A DNA stretch of 39,407 bases from the NCBI RefSeq assembly GCF_016903815.1, contig NZ_CP069970.1, one strand, 5' to 3'. This stretch comes from Escherichia coli. GTDB taxonomy: Bacteria > Pseudomonadota > Gammaproteobacteria > Enterobacterales > Enterobacteriaceae. This document shows, piece after piece, positions 1,256-16,037 of the stretch (positions within the stretch are counted from its first letter, which is position 1; each line of letters opens with the position of its first letter). The translations under genes and the position numbers were made by a program. The notes under the pieces were generated by a model. It did not search any database, had not been told where the DNA came from, and saw nothing but the letters and a program-made list of their open reading frames with translations.

Positions 1256-1414
1256 AGATATCCTGCGTATTACATAAGAAATTTTATGAATAATAAGCGG
1301 TAGGAACCTTTTTTTCTCTGGAAAATGTCACCCGATACCCTTCATACAGGCTTTGTCATCCTAAAATCCGGTTTAACCTTTTTTCGGATCTCCGATAAAA
1401 AAGAAAGAAATAGA

Positions 1415-1545
1415 GATATGCATAAACATATGCCTGGCATCTACATATGCTACCGCTATACATATGCCACACATCTGCCTATACTAAACATATGCACACA
1501 CCCGGTGCTTTGAATATTCCGGATATGTTTCACATATCCATATGC
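1415..1545. repeat. array of five ACATATGC-type direct repeats (CATATG cores near 1427, 1444, 1461, 1489, 1539) upstream of vapB
   Basis: Seen directly: the first three copies are spaced 17 bp apart, iteron-like. The array ends ~20 bp before the vapB start. Confidence 0.4.
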
Positions 1546-1561
1546 TCGGGAGAGAAAGAAC

Positions 1562-1792
1562 ATGAGAACCGTATCGATATTTAAAAATGGCAACAACCGC
1601 GCCATCCGTCTGCCTCGTGATCTGGATTTTGAGGGGGTGAGCGAGCTCGAGATCGTCCGGGAAGGGGACAGCATCATCCTGCGCCCCGTCCGGCCAACCT
1701 GGGGATCATTCCTAGAGTACGAAAAAGCCGATCCAGATTTTATGGCGGAGCGCGAGGATGTTGTCAGCGACGAAGGGCGATTTAACCTGTGA
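1562..1792 (+). CDS. vapB: VapB/VagC-family antitoxin (AbrB/SpoVT-type)
   Basis: 76-aa protein MRTVSIFKNGNNRAIRLPRDLDF..., closely resembling plasmid VagC antitoxin. Its stop overlaps the start of the next gene (GTGA). Confidence 0.85.
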   Translation: MRTVSIFKNGNNRAIRLPRDLDFEGVSELEIVREGDSIILRPVRPTWGSFLEYEKADPDFMAEREDVVSDEGRFNL

Positions 1793-2205
1793 ACAAGACT
1801 TATATGCTTGATACCTGTATCTGCTCGTTCATCATGCGTGAACAGCCAGAAGCCGTCCTGAAGCGTCTGGAGCAGGCGGTGCTACGCGGCCACCGTATAG
1901 TGGTCTCGGCCATCACCTACTCTGAAATGCGCTTCGGGGCTACCGGCCCAAAGGCCTCACCACGTCACGTCCAACTGGTCGATGAATTCTGCGCCCGCCT
2001 CGATGCCATCCTGCCCTGGGATCGCGCCGCAGTAGACGCCACCACGAAGATTAAAGTGGCACTGCGGCTGGCCGGGACGCCGATCGGCCCGAACGACACG
2101 GCGATTGCCGGGCACGCCATCGCCGCCGGGGCGATACTGGTAACGAATAATACAAGAGAATTTGAGCGAGTGCCTGACCTGGTGCTGGAAGACTGGGTGA
2201 AGTAA
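1789..2205 (+). CDS. vapC: VapC/VagD-family PIN-domain toxin
   Basis: PIN signature: N-terminal MLDTCIC (Asp), internal acidic residues, C-terminal TNNTREFERV. GTG start overlaps the vapB stop by 4 nt. Confidence 0.85.
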   Translation: MNKTYMLDTCICSFIMREQPEAVLKRLEQAVLRGHRIVVSAITYSEMRFGATGPKASPRHVQLVDEFCARLDAILPWDRAAVDATTKIKVALRLAGTPIGPNDTAIAGHAIAAGAILVTNNTREFERVPDLVLEDWVK

Positions 2206-2366: not shown

Positions 2367-4505
2367 TCAAGCGATACGGGCAACCGAGCTCTGGTTTGCT
2401 GCCGGTGGCAGGGCGATGAGCTTGTCACATTCCATAATCACGTACTCCGGGATGAGATCGAATCTGGACGGATCTAGTTGACAGATGAACTCATTTTCAA
2501 TGTGGTACGTTTCGTTAACGAATTTTCGTATTACCGGATGGTCCTGATCCAGTTCCAGTAAACGGAATACCTGCAGTTTTTCATAGCCGTTACGACAGCG
2601 ACGGTACAGGTTTTTTATTTCATCTGGGCTGCTGACGAGAGCCTGAAGTCGCGGGTAATCAAAACTGTCCACATACTCCCGGATATCCCGCAAGGCCTGC
2701 TGAATTTTCTCAGGAGCCATTTTGGGATAGCCCGAGCCCGCAGCGGCAGGCTCGCGATAATCCAGCGGGGCGACGCGTCGATGGAATAGATTGGATAGAA
2801 GCTGATAAGCATCACCACGTTCGTCAACGATTTCAAAGTAGCGACGAAGATAGATGAGCTTAATGATCTCCTCACAGTCTGCTGACGCGGTGATGGATTT
2901 GCAGATCTGCATGAATGTCATGATATCGCCGTCGTTAACAGGTAATTCTTCTATGACTCCAGCAGACAGGCGCAGGCAGGAGGCGGTCACCTGATTACTG
3001 AACAACCTTCTGACTGACTTCAGCGTGTCAATCACAGGCTCCACGTCATGCGTCAGCATAAGTACAGTCCGGTTCTTCAGGCATTCACCACTTGCACGTC
3101 TGAACAGCATTTCAAGAATGGCAAACTTCTTGTTTTTATCAAAAGAAGATATGGGATCATCAAGGATAATCAGTCCCGGGTTTTTTGACAGGCATTCATA
3201 CATGAATAACACAATCGCAAAGGCGTTCCGTTCTCCATAGCTGAGATGCTGGCTACCGCCGCTGACGTACCCGTCAAAATCTATGTGTCGTAGCCTGAGT
3301 TTTCTCTGCTCTCCCTCGCCGGCTATATCCACCCTGTATTTATAGCCTGCATAAGTGAGGAAATTATTGATGTTTGTTTTGTGCTGTGCGATCAGCCGGA
3401 TCATGCTGTCCCGGTGCCGGTTAATTTTTCCCTGCAGCGGTCCGGCAAGGTTTATCAGGTCCATAAGGGCCGCGTTCAGTCTGTCGGTGATCCCCTGCAT
3501 GAGTTCGGATTGCAGATCAGGGAAGAACTGCAGGTCAATCAACCTGGCAGTGAGCACCTCCCGAACGTTCTGCTGTTCCTGCAGGCTGAAAACATTCAGG
3601 CCTCTCAGCGCAGTGAGTTTCTCTGTCAGCGTATCGGTCTGGCGTTTCAACGCCACTAGGTACTCGATATGTTCGGCTTCCGGACCGTTCTGAAGCATAG
3701 TAATGGCCAGAAGGCGTTCTCTGGCGCTCTCCGTCAGGTAATTACCGAGGTTTTCCACCAGTCTGATGATAGCGGTCAGGTTTTTAATGGTGGATTTATC
3801 GTATTCCTCTCTGACTTGGCGAATTTGTGCTTCCTTTCCCGTGATATCACCGGTACAGAACGGACAGCAGCCATCCGAAAGGGGCGAAAACTCGAGTCCC
3901 TTTGTCTGCCAGTCAATCCATTCCACGCGGCGTTCACTGCGGATGTAGGGTTGATAGTTCTCAAGACCAGCCGGAATGTGGTGTATTTTATTTCCGCCTG
4001 ACAGACCTCTCATGCCGGTTGAAGAACGTGAAATCCCGGAACTGGTTGATTTGAAAGCATTACTGAGTTCCTGTAGATGGTCTATCAGAGAGTTCAGCTC
4101 AGTGTGATCCGTGAAAACAGCCCGGATCTTTTGCGTCATTTCTTCTATTTCACGCTCTCTTTCCGCATGGGCTTGATTGCGGATAAGAATATTAAAGCTG
4201 TCACTGATGAGCTCGTCCGGTTGGAACGTAAACTGACTGACGTACTCCTCGTTGAAGCACATCACGTCCCCAATCCCGTCAGCACCGATGACAATGGGCC
4301 CGGTGCTATCGGGGTTTTCTCCGCGCAGCCGGAAGGGCATCAGTGCCTGTAGTCCCTGAATGTCGTCCCGCGCCGCACAGCTTATGGCCCGTGACAGCGT
4401 ACTTTTTCCAGTACCATTTGGCGCAAACTTAATGTTCAGTTTATCGGCAGTGAGGGTGATATGTGCTCGTACGATGTTATTGCAGTGGCGTATTTCAATG
4501 TCCAT
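2367..4505 (-). CDS. ABC-type ATPase with coiled-coil zinc hook (AAA_13 family; RloC/PrrC-like candidate)
   Basis: 712 aa. Walker A FAPNGTGKST (aa 27-36), CCPFC zinc-hook-like motif inside a long predicted coiled-coil insert, ABC signature-like LSYGERN, Walker B LIILDDP, H-loop LTHD. C-terminal region has R-x3-E (LRRYFE) followed by His (LFHRR), reminiscent of the PrrC/RloC anticodon-nuclease triad. Confidence 0.6.
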   Translation of the reverse strand: MDIEIRHCNNIVRAHITLTADKLNIKFAPNGTGKSTLSRAISCAARDDIQGLQALMPFRLRGENPDSTGPIVIGADGIGDVMCFNEEYVSQFTFQPDELISDSFNILIRNQAHAEREREIEEMTQKIRAVFTDHTELNSLIDHLQELSNAFKSTSSGISRSSTGMRGLSGGNKIHHIPAGLENYQPYIRSERRVEWIDWQTKGLEFSPLSDGCCPFCTGDITGKEAQIRQVREEYDKSTIKNLTAIIRLVENLGNYLTESARERLLAITMLQNGPEAEHIEYLVALKRQTDTLTEKLTALRGLNVFSLQEQQNVREVLTARLIDLQFFPDLQSELMQGITDRLNAALMDLINLAGPLQGKINRHRDSMIRLIAQHKTNINNFLTYAGYKYRVDIAGEGEQRKLRLRHIDFDGYVSGGSQHLSYGERNAFAIVLFMYECLSKNPGLIILDDPISSFDKNKKFAILEMLFRRASGECLKNRTVLMLTHDVEPVIDTLKSVRRLFSNQVTASCLRLSAGVIEELPVNDGDIMTFMQICKSITASADCEEIIKLIYLRRYFEIVDERGDAYQLLSNLFHRRVAPLDYREPAAAGSGYPKMAPEKIQQALRDIREYVDSFDYPRLQALVSSPDEIKNLYRRCRNGYEKLQVFRLLELDQDHPVIRKFVNETYHIENEFICQLDPSRFDLIPEYVIMECDKLIALPPAANQSSVARIA

Positions 4506-4653
4506 TTATCTGTCCTTTGCCAGTTATTCCGGGGGGATTCATATCCTGCCGCAAAATGTGCCCGCATGCTGTGATGCAGATACATAATACATTTCGTTTA
4601 TACCATTGCTTACACCTCTCCGAGATGTTCATATCAGAAACAAAGATTAGGTC

Positions 4654-4679
4654 GATCCGACTTTTACTTTTTTCGGATC
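4654..4679. promoter_or_regulatory. inverted repeat GATCCGA-N12-TCGGATC in the divergent ATPase/NTase intergenic region
   Basis: Seen directly. Its right arm and T-run (TTTTTTCGGATCTC, ~4668-4681) recur nearly identically at ~1379-1392 upstream of vapB. Confidence 0.3.
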
Positions 4680-4969
4680 TCTGGAGAGGGGAAGAAGGAT
4701 TTGTGCTGATGATGCAATACTAATGATATATTTTGAACTTAATTGCATTATTGCTTATCTGGCATTAATAACTGAAATACTTTGCATAATTATCAATGAA
4801 AGAACGAGGCTCATATTTCCCATGTAAATTATATGCCCTTGCAGAGAGCGAGACGGTAGTGAACTTGCGGCACTAATAATAAACTGTACCGACTCTTCCC
4901 GGGCACTGGAATGTTCAGATGTACGACAGAGCCCCGCGCCTTTTGCAATAAATAATTAAAGGACTGAAC

Positions 4970-5965
4970 ATGGCGACCACAGTAATAGCTGCCTTTAACG
5001 AATTTATGAAAGATACCGTGAATCTCAAAAAGGCAGATACCGATGACGCGCGTGCAAGTCGCGACTGGCTTATCGGTAAGATGAATGATTTTGAGAAGGA
5101 CGATAAATTTCCGGTGAGTTTTCCAGCGATCCATATTGCCTTTGGCTCCTTTGCCAGAAGAACCAAAATCCGTCCGCTTGATGATATCGATCTGATGTTT
5201 GGCTTAACCGGGCAAGGTGCCACCTATACCATCCTGAGTGACCGGATAACTGTAACCTCCTCCGGAGAGGGGTCACGTCTGCACAGTTACCGCCATTCCG
5301 GAGCTGACACCGTCTGCTCCGTCAGAATTCTGAATGCCTTTAAAAACCGCCTGCAGGACATTGCCCAGTACGCCCAGGCTGATATCAGGCGTAACCAGGA
5401 AGCTGTCACGCTGAAACTGGTCAGCAAGGACTGGAATTTTGACATCGTCCCCTGCTTTATTACCAGCGAAGATGCCTTTGGACGGACTTACTACCTGATC
5501 CCCGATGGCAACGGCCACTGGAAGTTTACCGACCCCCGTAAAGACAGGGACAGAGTCACTACTATCAATGTGCAGAATAACGGCAATGTGCTCAATGTCA
5601 TCAGAGCAGTCAAATACTGGCAGCGGCGACCGACGATGCCATCCATGAGTTCCTACCTGCTGGAAACGCTGATTCTGGACTATTACGCTGGCAGGACATC
5701 CTGCTCATCGTTTGTTGACATGGAGCTGGAAGCGCTTTTCCGCCACCTTGGTCAATCCGTGCGGTACTCTGTCAACGATCCCAAAGGCATACAGGGTGAT
5801 ATCAACTCACTTTCAGCCGAGGCACGTAAGGCGATATCGGACAGATGTTATCTCGATGCGCAAAAGGTATCGGAGGCGAGATGGTTTGAAAATAATAAAG
5901 AGTATGAAAAATCCATCAATAAATGGCGCGATGTGTTCGGGCCATTCTTTCCTGTTTACGGGTGA
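4970..5965 (+). CDS. Pol-beta superfamily nucleotidyltransferase, SMODS / cGAS-DncV-like (CD-NTase-like)
   Basis: 331 aa. Active-site pattern G59-S60, then D72-x-D74 (HIAFGSFARRTKIRPLDDIDLMF), third Asp D158 in NFDIVPCF. Good SD (AAAGGA) before the ATG. Confidence 0.65.
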   Translation: MATTVIAAFNEFMKDTVNLKKADTDDARASRDWLIGKMNDFEKDDKFPVSFPAIHIAFGSFARRTKIRPLDDIDLMFGLTGQGATYTILSDRITVTSSGEGSRLHSYRHSGADTVCSVRILNAFKNRLQDIAQYAQADIRRNQEAVTLKLVSKDWNFDIVPCFITSEDAFGRTYYLIPDGNGHWKFTDPRKDRDRVTTINVQNNGNVLNVIRAVKYWQRRPTMPSMSSYLLETLILDYYAGRTSCSSFVDMELEALFRHLGQSVRYSVNDPKGIQGDINSLSAEARKAISDRCYLDAQKVSEARWFENNKEYEKSINKWRDVFGPFFPVYG

Positions 5966-5968
5966 ATC

Positions 5969-6901
5969 ATGAATGCCATTTACACAAACCAGTCGACCAG
6001 AGAAAACATGGATTTACTGTATGCGCAGGCCCGTGTCTACGACAGGGTAAAAAACTGGAACAGACTGAATTTTCTCTTCAGCATCATCGTACCGCTCCTG
6101 CTTTCTTTCGTTACCGTATACAACCGGAGCCGGGAATTTGTCGATTCAGAGTTGTTGTCTTCGCTGTTGGGGTTATATGGACTCCTGGTGCTTACCTTTA
6201 ACATTGTTATCAGTGGACACATCTCGGCTCTGCGCAGGAAGGCAGCCTCAATCCAGGAAATGTACGACTGCCGGGTACTTGGCATCCGGCGTAATGAACT
6301 GAAGGTGGAGGAGATCCCACGGGATGACATCATCCGGGAAGCTGCATATTTTAGAGACAGCCCGGAAAAAGCACGAAAGCGATTTGGCGAAGAGGGGTGG
6401 TACGTCAGTAAGGTGTATGACGCGCCGCAGGCCGTAATGGCGCTCCTTTGCCACGGAAAAAATCTCGGCTGGGACAAATCGCTCAGGGAGGTTCTGCACG
6501 TATTTTATCTTTCCGCTTTTATTGTCTCGCCTGTCGCGATGCTTGTTTACGGCATCGTCATGAAATCCGGGCTGAATGAGATCCTCTTCTATGTGGTGTT
6601 CACACTGCCGGTCATCCGCTATTTCTTGCTTCAGTTTCTGGATAATCGCAGCAGTATGAAAAGAAGCGAGAAGCTGAAAAAGTACGTTGAGAAGGAATTA
6701 TCCGGCATAAGGGTGTCCGGAAGGGCAGAAGAAGAGCAACTGGCTTATACGCTCCGGAATATCCAAGATGAGATGTTTACCTACCGGGCCTCATGTCCGC
6801 CCGTACCCAACGGTATTCAGCTGATAATGAAGCCCAAAAATGAACGAATTTATGTTGATTACTTTGAAACAAATCTGAAGGAGCTGCACCTTCAGAAGTA
6901 A
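5969..6901 (+). CDS. 4-TM membrane protein, putative effector partner of the nucleotidyltransferase
   Basis: 310 aa. ATG is 3 nt after the NTase stop, with an SD inside the NTase 3' end. Hydrophobic helices at ~aa 33-51 and 62-86, two more at ~175-225, a ~90-aa cytoplasmic insert and an ~80-aa C-terminal tail. Confidence 0.55.
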   Translation: MNAIYTNQSTRENMDLLYAQARVYDRVKNWNRLNFLFSIIVPLLLSFVTVYNRSREFVDSELLSSLLGLYGLLVLTFNIVISGHISALRRKAASIQEMYDCRVLGIRRNELKVEEIPRDDIIREAAYFRDSPEKARKRFGEEGWYVSKVYDAPQAVMALLCHGKNLGWDKSLREVLHVFYLSAFIVSPVAMLVYGIVMKSGLNEILFYVVFTLPVIRYFLLQFLDNRSSMKRSEKLKKYVEKELSGIRVSGRAEEEQLAYTLRNIQDEMFTYRASCPPVPNGIQLIMKPKNERIYVDYFETNLKELHLQK

Positions 6902-7037: not shown

Positions 7038-7541
7038 TTACTGATAGTGTTTTATGTTCAGATAATGCCCGATGACTTTGTCATGCAGCTCCACCGATTT
7101 TGAGAACGACAGCGACTTCCGTCCCAGCCGTGCCAGGTGCTGCCTCAGATTCAGGTTATGCCGCTCAATTCGCTGAGTGTAACGCTTGCTGATTACGTGC
7201 AGCTTTCCTTTCAGGCGGGATTCATACAGCGGCCAGCCATCCGTCATCCATATCACCACGTCAAAGGGTGACAGCAGGCTCATAAGACGCCCCAGCGTCG
7301 CCATAGTGCGTTCACCGAATACGTGCGCAACAACCGTCTTCCGGAGCCTGTCATACGCGTAAAACAGCCAGCGCTGGCGCGATTTAGCCCCGACGTATCC
7401 CCACTGTTCGTCCATTTCCGCGCAGACGATGACGTCACTGCCCGGCTGTATGCGCGAGGTTACCGACTGCAGCCTGAGTTTTTTAAGTGACGTAAAATCG
7501 TGTTGAGGCCAACGCCCATAATGCGGGCTGTTGCCCGGCAT
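7038..7541 (-). CDS. insB: IS1 InsB reading frame (expressed as the InsAB' frameshift fusion)
   Basis: Protein matches the IS1 transposase InsB; overlaps insA as in canonical IS1. Confidence 0.9.
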
Positions 7542-7948: not shown

Positions 7949-10900
7949 CTATATTTTTCCGCCTACGCCTTTAAACTTCTCAATAAACGAGACGATTTTC
8001 TGGAAAACTGCCTGTTTTTTCGTTTTATATTGCGGATTCAACGGACTAAGTTTTGGTAATGTCTCGTTTAATTCTGTGCCATTTTCGGTGGCGTATTCGC
8101 GTTTTAAAGACGTGCGAATATAGCGTTTTGCTGCATCTTCATTGAGATTTTCTTCTTTAATCAATGCTTCTGCTTCACGTAGCTGTTCGCGTTGAGCAAA
8201 CGTAAAGAATGCCTCAATGATACTGGCTTTGTCTGGTAAATCATCCAGGTTCGTTTGCTGAATAAAATCGACCACCAGGCCCTCTTTCGCCCGGTTCCCC
8301 AGGCTTGAACGAATTAAGCGTTTGACCTCTTCGATCATTTCGCCCTTGCCTTTATTTTGTCTGTTATGTTCGAAAATCAGTCCAAGGATATAATCCAGGT
8401 TTATTTCCTGAGACTTCAGCAAATCGACCTCAAAAACCACGTCATCCCAGTCAGTGGTTGATTTCTCTTTTTTATCAGCTTCTTTCTCGCGGCGCTGCCA
8501 GTCGCGAATATCGTTATAGGCAGAACGATAATCCTGAATCTTGCGATCAGCAGGGAGACGAATCGTTTGCAATTCAGCGAACTTTTCATCATCCACATAA
8601 TGTTCTGCTTTGAATTTTTCTACCTGCAACAGGATCGCTAAGATCGATTTGTTGCAGGGCTTTCAGCGTGGCAAATTCATCATAGTTTTGCAGGATGTTC
8701 TCGGTACGCAGGTATTCACCAAACAGTTTAACGAAGTCTTTCTTCTCTTTTTCACTTTCAATACTGGCAGGGTCAGGGAACCGTTGTTCCAGTTCTGCAA
8801 CTACTGCCATAAAGCCGCGCTTAGCTTCACCAGTAGCAGCATCAGTAAAGCCTTCCATATACTCTGCATAACTCTTTTCTAAAACTACATTTTTGGTGTT
8901 TTTGTCACCAAACAGCGTTATGGCATCAATAGTTGAGCGTTCCAGATCCCGGAAAGTGACGATATTACCGAAGGTTTTAGTGGCATCATAAATACGGTTG
9001 GTGCGGGAAAATGCCTGCATCAGGCCGTGAAAACGAAGGTTTTTATCGACGAATAGCGTGTTCAATGTTGGAGCATCGAAGCCAGTTAAGAACATCCCCA
9101 CGACAATTAGCAGATCGATATCCTGATTTTTAACCCGCTGGGCTAAATCACGATAGTAGTTCTGAAAACCGTTACTGTCGGTGCTGAAGTTAGTTTTAAA
9201 ATAGCTGTTATACTCACGAATTGCAGCGTCCAGAAACTCTTTAGCACTGCTGTCCATTGCGCTGGTATCAAAAGTTTCATCGGAAATCTCACCAATGGCA
9301 TTTTGTTCTTCATTAGCGGCAAAGGAGAAGATTGTCGCAATACGCAGCGGTTTATAGGTAGCCGATTTATTAGCGGCTTCCTCTTGTAACCGTTTAAACG
9401 TCGCATAATAGGCTTTCGCAGCATCCACGCTGCTCACTGCCAACATAGCATTAAAGCCTTTTGAGCCTGGGAAGGTACGGTGAGTTTTCTGGCGGAAGTT
9501 ATTCAGAATATATTGCGTAATTTCCTGTATACGCATGGGATGAAGAAACGCCTGCTGATTTTCAGCCGCACTCAGTTTTTTCTCGTCAGTTTCTGTCTCT
9601 AAAGACTTAAACTGTGGCCGCACATCGTTGTAGTCCACCTTGAATTTAAGCACTTTTTCATCACGAATCGCATCGGTAATTACATACGAATGCAATTCAC
9701 GACCAAATACGCTGGCGGTCGTTTCTGAGCCTAAGGCGTTTTCCGGGAAAATAGGGGTACCGGTAAAACCAAACTGATAATAGCGTTTGAATTTCTTCTT
9801 CAGGTTTTTCTGTGCTTCTCCAAACTGGCTGCGGTGGCATTCATCAAATATAAACACCACTTGCTGATTATATACAGACAGGTCGCTTTCTGCTTTCATC
9901 AGGTTATTGAGTTTCTGAATAGTAGTGACGATAATTTTGTTATCGTCCTTATCCAGATTTCGTTTAAGACCTGCGGTATTTTCCGATCCATTGACACTGT
10001 CTGGCGAAAAACGCTGATATTCCTTCATGGTCTGGTAATCGAGGTCTTTCCTGTCGACCACGAAGAAGACTTTATCAATAAAGTCCAGTTCTGTTGCCAG
10101 ACGCGCGGCTTTAAAGCTGGTCAGGGTTTTACCAGAACCGGTAGTGTGCCAGATAAAGCCACCACTTTCGGGGTTAGACCAGTTTTTCGCTTTATAGGAG
10201 CTGTTGATTTTCCATAAGATACGTTCAGTGGCGGCAATCTGGTACGGTCGCATCACCAGTAGCGTCTGGACTACTGTCAAAAACGCTGTAGTTCACCAGA
10301 ACATTCAGCAGAGTATGTTTCTGGAAAAAGGTAGCGGTAAAGTCTTTGAGGTCTTTAATCAGCGTGTTGTCTGATTTCGCCCAATTCATGGTGAAGTCAA
10401 AACTGTTTTTATCGCGCTTTGTCGTGTTGGCAAAATAACGGGTATCGGTGCCGTTAGAAATGACAAACAGTTGCAGATACTTAAACAGGGAATTTTCGCT
10501 GTTAAAACTCTCTTTACTGTAACGATGTATCTGGTTGAAAGCCTCACGAATCGCCACCCCGCGTTTTTTTAGTTCGATTTGCACCAGCGGTAAACCATTA
10601 ACCAGGATCGTGACGTCATAACGGTTAGCATGAGAACCCGTCTGTTCAAACTGCTGGATAATCTGCACCTTATTGCGCATGAGATTCTTTTTATCTATCA
10701 AATAGATGTTCTCAAGTCGCCCGTCGTCAAAAATAAAGTCGCAGATATAGTCGATATGGATTTTACGGGTTTTATCCAGAATACCATCGCTGGGGTTGTC
10801 CAGATACTGCTCCGTGAAGCGCCGCCACTCGCTGTCATTAAACATCACACCATTGAGGCTCTGAAGCTGTTCCCGAACATTAGACAGCATTGCCGACTGT

Positions 10901-11067
10901 GATTTTACGGAAATAAATTCATAACCCTGATTCCGCAGGTCCTGAATCAGTTCACGTTCCAGGTCCGATTCGCTCTGGTAGCTGTCGCTTGTTTGCTCAG
11001 CTTTGATGTACTTATCAAGGACGATAAAGTTATTGGATTCAGCAATGGTGTGTGTTTGATGAGTCAT
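7949..11067 (-). pseudogene. hsdR: type I restriction enzyme R subunit, split into three frames by two +1 frameshifts
   Basis: Three consecutive minus-strand ORFs in three frames (10225-11067, 8589-10280, 7949-8629) that together read as one ~1040-aa HsdR (N-terminal nuclease region, RPYQ-type helicase start, C-terminal domain). Frame changes coincide with A5/T5 runs at 10279-10283 and 8615-8619; removing one base at each restores a continuous frame. Confidence 0.7.
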
Positions 11068-11188
11068 AGCGCATCCTTTGTGCCGCCTGGCAAGAGCCGG
11101 AAGGGCGTTAAGAGTGACTTCCGGCGCGTAAAAAATAGTCTATATACTGACCGGATGTTAAGGTGAGCCGGTCTGTAGCAATGGTCAA

Positions 11189-12441
<1,253 letters not shown>

Positions 12442-12445
<4 letters not shown>

Positions 12446-14004
12446 TTCTGCACCTCGCAGCCTTCAATTTCAGCCACAATCGCATCAATATCTTTGCGCA
12501 ACTGGTCGATTTTGCTGACCGTGGTTTTCAGCTCAGCATTCAGCTCAGCGATATCGATAATTTCGCGAGTATCTTTCGCTTCCACATAGCTGCTCACCGA
12601 CAGGTTATAGTCATTCGCGACAACAGTCTCAAACGCAACAGATTTCGCCAGATGAGCAACATCTTCCTTGCTGGCAAATACCTGCATAATTTTTTCGATA
12701 TGGGCATCGGTCAGGATGTTGTTGTTAGTCTCTTTTTTGAACAGTTCGCTGGCGTCAATAAACTGAACTTTGGTATCCGTTTTATGTTTAGACAGAACCA
12801 GAATGTTTACGGCAATGGTGGTGCCAAAGAACAGGTTCGGAGCCAGTGAAATCACGGTTTCGACATAGTTATTATCGACCAGATACTGACGGATTTTCTG
12901 CTCCGCGCCGCCACGGTAAAAAATGCCTGGGAAGCAGACAATCGCAGCGCGACCTTTGGCCGAAAGATAGTTCAGCGCATGTAATACAAACGCAAAGTCA
13001 GCTTTGGATTTGGGGGCCAGAACGCCAGCCGGGGCAAAACGTTCATCGTTAATCAGCGTCGGGTCATCGCTGCCAATCCATTTCACCGAATACGGCGGGT
13101 TAGAAACGATGGCATCAAACGGTTTTTCATCTCTGAAGTGCGGCTCAGTCAGTGTATTACCCAGCTTGATATCAAACTTGTCGTAGTTGATGTTGTGCAA
13201 AAACATGTTCATACGCGCCAGGTTATAGGTCGTATGGTTGATTTCCTGACCAAAAAAACCTTCTTCGATGATATGGTCATCAAACTGTTTTTTAGCCTGC
13301 AACAACAGCGAACCGGAGCCTGCTGCCGGGTCGTAGATTTTGTTAACGTGGGTCTGCCCGTGCATAGCCAGTTGTGCAATCAGCTTAGAGACGTGCTGCG
13401 GTGTAAAGAACTCGCCGCCTGACTTACCGGCATTCGCCGCATAGTTAGAAATCAGGAACTCATAGGCGTCACCGAACAGGTCAATCTGATGTTCGTGGAA
13501 GTCACCAAGTTTTAACCCTTCAACCCCTTTCAGAACCGCAGCCAGGCGGGCATTTTTATCCTTAACGGTATTCCCCAGGCGGTTACTGGTTGTATCGAAA
13601 TCAGCAAACAAACCTTTGATGTCAGCTTCTGAAGGATAACCGTAAGCAGAACTTTCGATAGCAACGAAGATGCTGTTTAAATCCGCATTCAGTCTGTCAT
13701 TGGTATTTGCTTTCGCCGCTACGTTGCAGAAAAGCTGACTGGGGTAGATGAAGTAACCTTTGGTTTTGATGGCATCGTCTTTAATGTCATCAGTAATTAC
13801 GCTGTCATCCAGTTTCGCATAACAGATACTGTCATCACCGGCTTCAATATAGCTGGAAAAATTTTCGCTGATAAAACGGTAAAAAAGCGCGCCCAAAACG
13901 TACTGCTTAAAATCCCATCCATCGACTGAACCCCTGACATCGTTAGCAATTTGCCAGATCTGGCGATGAAGCTCTGCACGTTGTTGAATACTTGTCATTT
14001 TCAT
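12442..14004 (-). CDS. hsdM: type I restriction-modification N6-adenine DNA methyltransferase subunit
   Basis: 520 aa with SAM-binding motif [10 protein letters not shown] and catalytic NPPYS; N-terminus [25 protein letters not shown] is typical of HsdM. Confidence 0.9.
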
Positions 14005-14993: not shown

Positions 14994-16037
14994 GTGAAAG
15001 CCGTAATTACTCCCTTTGTACAAAAAGAGCTTGGCGTCGCCACATTCAAAGTGGATCAGGAAGTCAGAAAGCTGGTGGAGGCTGGCCGTAAATTTATTAT
15101 GGAGCCGGTGCCGCGTGAGTTAATCGAGCACATGGACGACGGCCTCGTTGTTTCCGAGCAAACTATGGCAACAAATGAGGCGTTGCAGCCGTTTTTTAAC
15201 AGCGATGAACTGTTTCGCCGTATTGGTGGAATTGACGCGCTGGTGGCGTGGTTGCGCAGGAAAGAGGGGCAATGCCAGGCCGCAGATCGTAGCTGGTGTG
15301 ACAACCATATTGTCCACGCAGAACGAGACAATAGCGCGGTGTTGTTGTGCTGGCATCACGATAACCATTACCGGATGCGTGGTTTTAATGAGCTGAAAGA
15401 AACGCTGCATAATAATCGCGTTAACTGGATACTGGATGTCGCCCGTCAGGAAATGGGGCTTTCAGATGGCCATGTTCTAAGTATTCAGGAACTGTGCTGG
15501 TGGGCTTTCATGCGCAACATGATGCACCTGATGCCTGAAGAAGTTTGCCGTATATCAATAAATAAGATGAAAGCCGCAACGCAGGATAGCGGACCTCTGA
15601 AAGAGGCGGATATTCGCCCGTATGACGATCGCGCTACAGCATATGTTCAGATGATGGAAGAACGCGCCGCGCCGATGCGTGCAAAAGTATGCCCTGTGGA
15701 TGTTGACTCCGACCCTGGCATGGCGCATTTCAAAATACCAAAACTGCAATCGCTAAAATTACCTGAGTACATGGACTTTGTTGCTTCCCGTCCATGCTGT
15801 GGGTGTGGAGCGGCGGGAGCTGGCGCTCACATTACGCCTTATATCGTTCGTCATAGTCGATTATGCGCGCATGACATTTACGCAATTCCTCTGTGCCAGT
15901 CATGCCAGCGTGATATTGAGCGTGACCGCGATAATTGGGAGAAGACGCACGGCAGGCTGGCGATGCATCAACGATTGTTCTTTGATTACGCGCTTGGAGT
16001 CGGCGCTATCACAAGTCACTCGTCGAGCGTTAGATAA
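14994..16037 (+). CDS. pdcB: post-doc protein B
   Basis: 347-aa ORF in the P1 pdcB position between doc/pdcA and lpa; GTG start; Cys/His-rich C-terminal part. Confidence 0.65.

Follow-up and report, generated by a model that had tools for sequence, protein, structure and literature searches.

A strictly phased array of CATATG half-sites upstream of a plasmid-borne vagCD-type vapBC module: a probable multi-unit operator of the antitoxin VapB

The window analysed here, a stretch of 39,407 nucleotides of Escherichia coli DNA, carries a vapBC toxin-antitoxin pair on its plus strand. The first gene, vapB (1562..1792), encodes a vagC-type antitoxin of 76 amino acids with an N-terminal AbrB/MazE swapped-hairpin DNA-binding domain (match to PF04014, MazE/AbrB, E = 3e-9). 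The second, vapC (1789..2205), encodes a vagD-type PIN-domain toxin of 138 amino acids (PF01850), and the two genes overlap by 4 nt at the vapB stop. The module is the vagCD of the plasmid literature; a 96%-identical form is carried by pEK499 (locus L003), and pEC958 has been reported as a carrier of vagDC. The segment is 100% identical to the E. coli IncF plasmid p123 (NZ_CP023378), and a megablast search found the vapBC pair in 4,833 PLSDB records, mainly from Klebsiella, Escherichia, Salmonella and Enterobacter. Upstream, the region at 1381-1561 sits between vapB and a divergent minus-strand ORF that starts near 1255. The neighbours of the pair in the window include a membrane-type hypothetical gene, an AAA_13 ATPase gene (2367-4505, minus strand) and a SMODS/S-4TM pair (4970-6901).

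Several features of the surrounding DNA were recorded in passing. The SMODS nucleotidyltransferase gene (PF18144, 4970-5965) is followed by that of an S-4TM membrane effector (PF18159, E = 7e-47, 5969-6901), a composition like that of minimal CBASS anti-phage systems; with this CBASS-like pair lying next to vapBC and the AAA_13 ATPase, the stretch looks like a small defence island. A GC-rich hairpin, AAACAGCCCGTATACGGGCTGTTTT, at 2247-2262 separates the convergent genes for VapC and the AAA ATPase and resembles a bidirectional intrinsic terminator; it is absent from the output of the consensus scan. The window as a whole is a mosaic, in which the first ~7 kb are IncF-plasmid accessory DNA, followed by an IS1-like ORF (~7038-7541) and, from 7790 on, by DNA with 99.7% identity to P1-like phage-plasmids of ~96 kb that carry a type I restriction-modification system (hsdRMS), the KilAC antirepressor and terminase.

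An array of short repeats occupies positions 1414-1545, and its final copy ends 16 nt 5' of the vapB ATG (1562), close to the ~20 bp given in an earlier note on this DNA. The 8-mer ACATATGC, which is built on the perfectly palindromic core CATATG, occurs exactly four times within the array (1426-1433, 1443-1450, 1460-1467 and 1488-1495). The earlier note had counted five copies, the first three of them spaced by 17 bp. The spacing is exact (1426, 1443, 1460) and four of the copies stand, but the fifth, at 1538-1545, reads CCATATGC and matches ACATATGC at only 7 of 8 positions while keeping an exact CATATG(C). The count was also incomplete, as four further copies with one mismatch had been overlooked: AGATATGC at 1414, ACATCTGC at 1471, and ACATATCC at 1521 (minus strand) and 1532. 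When the whole 39.4-kb window was scanned, one more exact ACATATGC was found outside the array, at 15639 on the minus strand, which gives five observed against 1.44 expected. Nine copies with at most one mismatch thus fall inside 135 bp, and the largest cluster in 300 dinucleotide-preserving shuffles of the window held four (mean, 2.15); the repeat cluster is therefore real and non-random. Tandem Repeats Finder reported no tandem repeat at 1300-1600, because conservation is limited to the cores and the spacers vary.

The upstream regions of homologous modules were then compared. The sample was drawn from 8 diverged plasmid loci and 80 loci of distinct species found via VapC, in which vapB was then located, and the resulting comparison set comprised 86 loci ranging from Escherichia to Vibrio, Pseudomonas and Xenorhabdus, with VapB identities of 60-100%. 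CATATG was present upstream of vapB in 85 of the 86 loci. Over the 200 nt that precede vapB its density was 12.8 per kb, compared with 0.11 per kb elsewhere in these loci (274 kb), a more than 100-fold enrichment. The genes flanking the module vary by locus (ccdAB, DUF3800, IS26, a nuclease, a restriction enzyme and others), and so do the replicons, which include IncF, IncK2/Z, IncR and IncHI1B as well as some chromosomal contigs. The conservation that had been proposed as a check on the repeats is thus borne out among unrelated neighbours, and the site is inherited together with vapB whatever the genomic context, as is expected of an operator. Across plasmid classes, nucleotide homology begins at window positions 1380-1438 and extends to the vapC stop; being confined to the stretch from the array through vapC, it indicates that the array is part of the vapBC cassette alone.

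The 5' edge of this cassette is marked by a separate element of ~50 bp with the form AGATCCGGAACT-N8-TTTTTTCGGATCT-N6-GAAAAAGAGAGAA, found at 1378-1412 in the window, where its left arm is degenerate; in consensus form the left part reads (A)GATCCGG(A/G)ACT. Its inverted GATCCG/CGGATC arms create two Dam GATC sites about 22 bp apart. The element bounds the vapBC cassette in 37 enterobacterial loci and occurs elsewhere too, at 4653-4700 of the window and in other plasmids (loci L001, 4700-4745; L092, 1505-1550; L093, 1500-1545). It also lies, in the same orientation, 5' of unrelated genes, namely the SMODS gene of the window, a gene annotated as RelB/DinJ and hypothetical genes next to ccdAB, and a blastn search with it matched no fewer than 3,975 plasmids. 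A role at module junctions, in regulation or in recombination is possible. Since the TTTTTTCGGATCT box recurs upstream of unrelated genes, it was rejected as a part of the VapB array. The idea that recombination sites bound the cassette on both sides was likewise dropped, as a matching inverted repeat downstream of vapC was present in just 2 of 84 loci.

Across the comparison set, the repeat unit is not an isolated 8-mer but a 17-bp lattice that holds two CATATG-like cores at alternating distances of 11 and 6 bp. With a core counted as CATATG-like at one mismatch or fewer, neighbouring cores were 11 bp apart in 212 cases and 6 bp apart in 139, with hardly any other spacing, and the distances between all pairs of cores fell at 6, 11, 17, 23, 28, 34, 40, 45, 51 and 57 bp. 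In loci with just two cores, the spacing was nearly always 11 bp. The lattice consensus is CAT(A/C)TG-CATATGC-NNNN, of which the second core is the strong one; the 17-bp spacing reported earlier is the period of this lattice, and the 8-mer is the strong core plus its flanking bases. In the window, strong cores start at 1427, 1444, 1461 and 1489, and weak or degenerate lattice positions lie at 1421, 1438, 1455, 1472 and 1478, with 2-3 mismatches at 1421, 1438, 1455 and 1478. A downstream trio of cores follows at 1522, 1533 and 1539, in steps of 11 and then 6 bp. In total, the window contains 4-5 putative operator units and 13 lattice positions.

Read from its distal end, the array begins with the near-copy AGATATGC (1414..1421), whose core GATATG (1415-1420) lies 12 bp before the next strong core and one base off the lattice. 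The weak core CATAAA (1421..1426), with two mismatches to CATATG, lies 6 bp before the strong core at 1427. The first putative operator unit (1426..1443) combines a strong ACATATGC (1426-1433) with the weak CATCTA (1438-1443), 11 bp downstream, and by analogy with related systems it is the putative site of one VapB4C4 complex. In the second putative unit (1443..1460), a strong ACATATGC (1443-1450) is joined by a degenerate core (1455-1460) that overlaps the -35 hexamer. The third (1460..1477) pairs a strong ACATATGC (1460-1467) with ACATCTGC (core CATCTG, 1472-1477), again 11 bp downstream, and occupies the spacer between -35 and -10. A further strong ACATATGC core (1488..1495) lies 3 nt after the -10 box and over the expected transcription start, and its partner position is 1478, 11 bp upstream. 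The leader-proximal sites (1521..1545) consist of GGATATGT (core 1522), ACATATCC (core 1533, +11 bp) and CCATATGC (core 1539, +6 bp), of which GGATATGT and ACATATCC form a perfect 8-nt inverted repeat.

A promoter was predicted within the array by consensus matching (9 of 12 positions), with the -35 hexamer TATACA at 1457..1462 and the -10 hexamer TATACT at 1480..1485, both on the plus strand; the expected start is ~1492. The predicted -35 hexamer overlaps the strong core at 1461, and the predicted -10 hexamer lies on the weak lattice core CCTATA (1478-1483). A Shine-Dalgarno-like GGGAGAG (1548..1554, plus strand), read from the sequence, stands 7 nt before the vapB ATG. The array therefore adjoins vapB directly and encloses both predicted promoter elements, which is the placement of an operator.

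This arrangement recurs among the relatives. TATACT was found upstream of vapB in 68 of the 86 loci, and in 55 of these 68 a core lies exactly 3 nt after it. TATACA at -35, 17 nt from TATACT, was found in 47 of the 68, and the distant relatives have TTGACA in an equal register. In 29 distinct expanded arrays, the cores keep fixed offsets from the -10 box of +9, -2, -19, -36, -42, -53, -59, -70, -76, -87 and -93. A core with at most one mismatch is present at the upstream lattice positions in 79-100% of these arrays, against a background of 6%, while the spacer bases vary. The position at -36, which belongs to the window's 1443..1460 unit, holds a core in all 29 arrays (100%), and that at -59, where the window has the weaker CATAAA at 1421, does so in 90%. 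Such conservation of the cores beside variable spacers points to selection acting on the upstream units.

The extent of the array differs between clades. Distant relatives from Vibrio, Photobacterium, Pseudomonas, Xenorhabdus and Shewanella, with VapB identities of 60-75%, have one or two 11-bp pairs, that is, 2-4 cores each, flanking a TTGACA-17-TATACT promoter. In one example, CATATGCTTGACATATGC lies over the TTGACA -35 element and is followed by a 17-nt spacer, TATACT, 3 nt and CATATG-N5-CATATG; an 11-bp pair downstream of the -10 box, like that at 1522/1533 in the window, is thus present in distant relatives as well. In the Enterobacterales clade, which includes the window, 8-19 lattice cores extend across 110-190 bp in fixed register with the -10 box. 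The upper end of this range is an Enterobacteriaceae genome (MGYG-HGUT-00110, locus L049), in which two units have undergone a 34-bp tandem triplication (catctGCATATGCcatgcagatGCATAtcctgag x3) at ~90-220 nt upstream of vapB, giving 19 cores. Amplification of the array by duplication is therefore ongoing.

Given that the motif travels with vapB, keeps register with the promoter and consists of palindromic paired half-sites, we consider that the array is most probably a multi-unit autoregulatory operator for VapB or VapBC, laid over -35, -10 and the predicted start. VapB is the one DNA-binding gene product that constantly accompanies the motif, which makes it the likely ligand. Its N-terminus, FKNGNNRAIRLPRD, contains N9, G10, N12 and R16, which are invariant in 86 of 86 VapBs. 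N9 and position 11 align with Asn9/Gln11 of Rickettsia felis VapB2 and with Ser11/Asn13 of Caulobacter crescentus VapB1, so that the base-contact residues seen in the solved complexes (PDB 3ZVK, 5L6L) are kept in this AbrB-type VapB. The half-sites are palindromic and lie about one helical turn apart, 11 bp being the dominant spacing (212 cases), as in an operator of this kind. The suggestion in the earlier note that the repeats form a multi-site VapB operator is thus favoured by co-inheritance across the 86 loci, by promoter register and by half-site form.

We infer the binding of VapB or VapBC, its stoichiometry, repression and conditional cooperativity from homologous systems, and on that basis the following scheme can be proposed. 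Each palindromic CATATG core would serve one VapB dimer, which would contact it with the AbrB-type swapped-hairpin domain. Cores at a distance of 11 bp would lie in neighbouring major grooves on the same side of the helix, and such a pair would be the operator unit of a single VapB4C4 hetero-octamer with its two AbrB-type domains; the candidate pairs in the window are (1427, 1438), (1444, 1455), (1461, 1472), (1478, 1489) and (1522, 1533). The 4-5 units would tile the DNA from ~65 bp upstream to ~50 bp downstream of the predicted start, one per 17 bp. With VapBC bound, RNA polymerase would be kept off the promoter and vapBC would be transcribed at a low level, and when the labile VapB is lost or VapC is in excess, the complex would be released and transcription induced. 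The binding species may be the VapBC complex and not VapB alone, because VapB-1 of nontypeable Haemophilus influenzae (NTHi) alone did not bind DNA (PMC3302801). A step of 17 bp is a non-integer number of helical turns and rotates the site by ~220 degrees, which would place neighbouring complexes on approximately opposite sides of the helix, so that perhaps not all units can be filled at once.

The most serious alternative is that only the promoter-proximal sites, namely the ancestral pair or pairs around -35 and after -10, are functional and that slipped-strand or tandem duplication has added the upstream copies, which would be neutral. Such copying would account for the recent 34-bp triplication in L049 and for a copy number that ranges from 8 to 19 between close relatives, and distant relatives do manage with 2-4 cores. 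However, the positions from -36 to -93 are conserved to an extent (79-100% of the 29 arrays) that equals or exceeds that of the promoter-embedded positions, and the spacers of 4-5 nt are near random, which fits selection on the cores and not decay. We regard neutral duplication as unlikely. The repeats might instead bind another protein, either a global regulator of the host or a regulator encoded elsewhere on the plasmid, and the adjoining TTTTTTCGGATCT element (1378-1391), being common to unrelated cassettes, shows that a non-VapB element is present at the locus. Against this, vapB is accompanied by the CATATG lattice, whether on a plasmid or on a chromosome, in Enterobacterales, Vibrio, Pseudomonas, Shewanella and Cellvibrio; CATATG is more than 100-fold rarer in the flanking 3 kb; and the form of the sites matches the solved AbrB-VapB complexes. 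A ligand other than VapB is thus quite improbable.

Control at the RNA level was also considered, in which the leader hairpin GGAUAUGUUUCACAUAUCC would regulate translation or mRNA stability. A perfect 8-bp inverted repeat does lie at 1521-1539, within the predicted 5' UTR and 9 nt upstream of the Shine-Dalgarno sequence, but both of its arms are operator cores at the canonical 11-bp spacing, and shuffled sequence folds as well as the predicted leader does (z = -0.3). Transcription from the predicted start would leave out the greater part of the array, and an Rfam scan of 1100-2400 at a permissive threshold gave one meaningless match to a eukaryotic miRNA (E = 0.67). An RNA function was rejected on these grounds, and we rate its probability as very low. 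The label "iteron-like" had been attached to the array in the earlier note, with a replication or partition module as a possible host. Phased short repeats on a large low-copy plasmid do recall replication-origin iterons or a parC/parS-like centromere linked to the toxin-antitoxin pair: the iterons of RepE and RepFIB replicons are likewise short repeats phased at ~17-22 bp on large plasmids, and RepE and RepB-family genes lie ~8 kb to either side in the otherwise identical plasmid. Unlike those iterons, the array lacks a neighbouring rep gene, an AT-rich region and a DnaA box. In none of the loci examined does a rep or par gene adjoin it, no partition gene lies within 8 kb in the identical plasmid, and a search for DnaA boxes found none within 11 kb, the nearest being at 13194. 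RepFIB-type iterons were sought at 8200-11200, where the window leaves p123 for P1-like phage-plasmid DNA, and the absence of an iteron family from that stretch bears on neither reading. Iteron repeats would be asymmetric and conserved over their full 17-22 bp; here, just palindromic cores of 6-8 bp are conserved. The array is carried by different replicon types and by chromosomal contigs, and plasmid homology ends at the vapC stop, so that it is inherited with vapB and not with a replicon. The replication or partition reading was accordingly rejected, having almost no likelihood left, and the label is misleading.

Returning to the autoregulatory VapB operator, we tentatively raise the possibility, which we hold to be less than likely, that an ancestral two-pair operator was amplified in the enterobacterial, largely plasmid-borne vagCD clade and that the resulting lattice could nucleate a higher-order VapBC assembly. 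In such an assembly, successive hetero-octamers would sit on alternating faces of the helix, or would use overlapping alternative binding registers. If this is true, the lattice might sense the VapB:VapC ratio in an ultrasensitive manner, or might buffer free VapBC by serving as a DNA sink, and it would set how abruptly the addiction module is triggered when the plasmid is lost. We know of no characterised VapBC operator with such higher-order, ratio-sensing or sink behaviour. The vagCD-type vapBC pairs are among the commonest addiction systems of IncF plasmids and of Klebsiella resistance and virulence plasmids. In the full-text literature available without subscription, we found no description of a vagCD operator, of its CATATG core or of a 17-bp lattice, and no published binding, footprint, reporter or transcription-start results for this family. 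The core RCATATGY, the spacing rule (11-bp pairs, 17 bp between units) and the promoter register can be used directly in experiments, for the design of binding and reporter assays, for promoter annotation and possibly for anti-plasmid targets that derepress the toxin. The progression from 2-4 sites to 8-19 phased sites offers a natural series on operator multiplicity in toxin-antitoxin regulation.

Many short repeats around a promoter, bound cooperatively by a repressor in higher-order complexes, are known from the F-plasmid ccdAB operator, the omega heptad arrays and R1 parC. The repressors of these systems have an unrelated fold (ribbon-helix-helix), and their repeats and periodicities are different, so the likeness is a functional analogy only.

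Closer parallels are found among the VapBC operators. The best structural match to the DNA-binding domain of the window's VapB is C. crescentus VapBC1 (5L6L, 5L6M; E about 1e-6). In that system, a palindromic half-site, GTATATAC, is accompanied by a second half-site ~10 nt away in the adjacent major groove; Ser11 and Asn13 read the bases, and one half-site is perfectly palindromic while the other is degenerate (PMC5389673). These two residues correspond to positions 9 and 11 of the window's VapB. The GTATATAC site lies over the -10 box, the two domains dock on the same side of the DNA, and the ~10-nt pair is the equivalent of the 11-bp pair described here; the combination of a strong and a degenerate half-site is common to the C. 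crescentus operator and the units in the window. C. crescentus differs in having a single unit, another core sequence and a chromosomal location.

In R. felis VapBC2 (PDB 3ZVK), Asn9 and Gln11 make base-specific contacts, and each dimer reads an internally palindromic half-site; the operator holds A(A/G)TAT-ATA(C/T)T twice, a palindrome of alternating T/A steps with proven binding (PMC3326315). The NTHi VapBC-1 complex footprints on two copies of TAGTATATAC, which is palindromic and centred on alternating T/A steps, and single-base changes in it cut binding 5-10-fold (PMC3302801). The base-reading residues of both proteins align with N9 and N11 of the window's VapB. Both operators differ from the array in their wider site spacing (22 bp in NTHi and about 14 bp in R. 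felis) and in having two sites each without an extended lattice, and in the R. felis complex the two domains reach the DNA from different sides.

The VapBC system of Salmonella enterica LT2 has two footprinted operators, over -35 and -10, and shows conditional cooperativity (PMC3378870). Its vapO1 and vapO2, together with the related mvpAT of Shigella pMYSH6000, share with the window an AbrB-type VapB, the overlap with -35 and -10, and two half-sites per operator (PMC3378870). The plasmid loci of the LT2 type carry GTATATCC/GGATATAC repeats in this two-operator layout, which is also that of the distant members of the CATATG family, with one pair at -35 and one after -10. The cores are GTATAT/ATATAC-type inverted repeats in LT2 and CATATG in the vagCD family, and the VapBs share little identity (phmmer E = 6e-9 against PDB 6IFM). 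LT2 has two operators, whereas 4-5 units are present in the window and as many as 19 cores, on a strict lattice of 17 bp, in its relatives.

Collectively, these comparisons suggest that the vagCD-type family follows the operator grammar of AbrB-type VapBC systems with a core of its own, CATATG. The array would then be of a known kind, a type II toxin-antitoxin autoregulatory operator. Its new feature is an unusually long and strictly phased array: characterised VapBC operators have one or two units, against 4-5 predicted here and up to about 9 in relatives.
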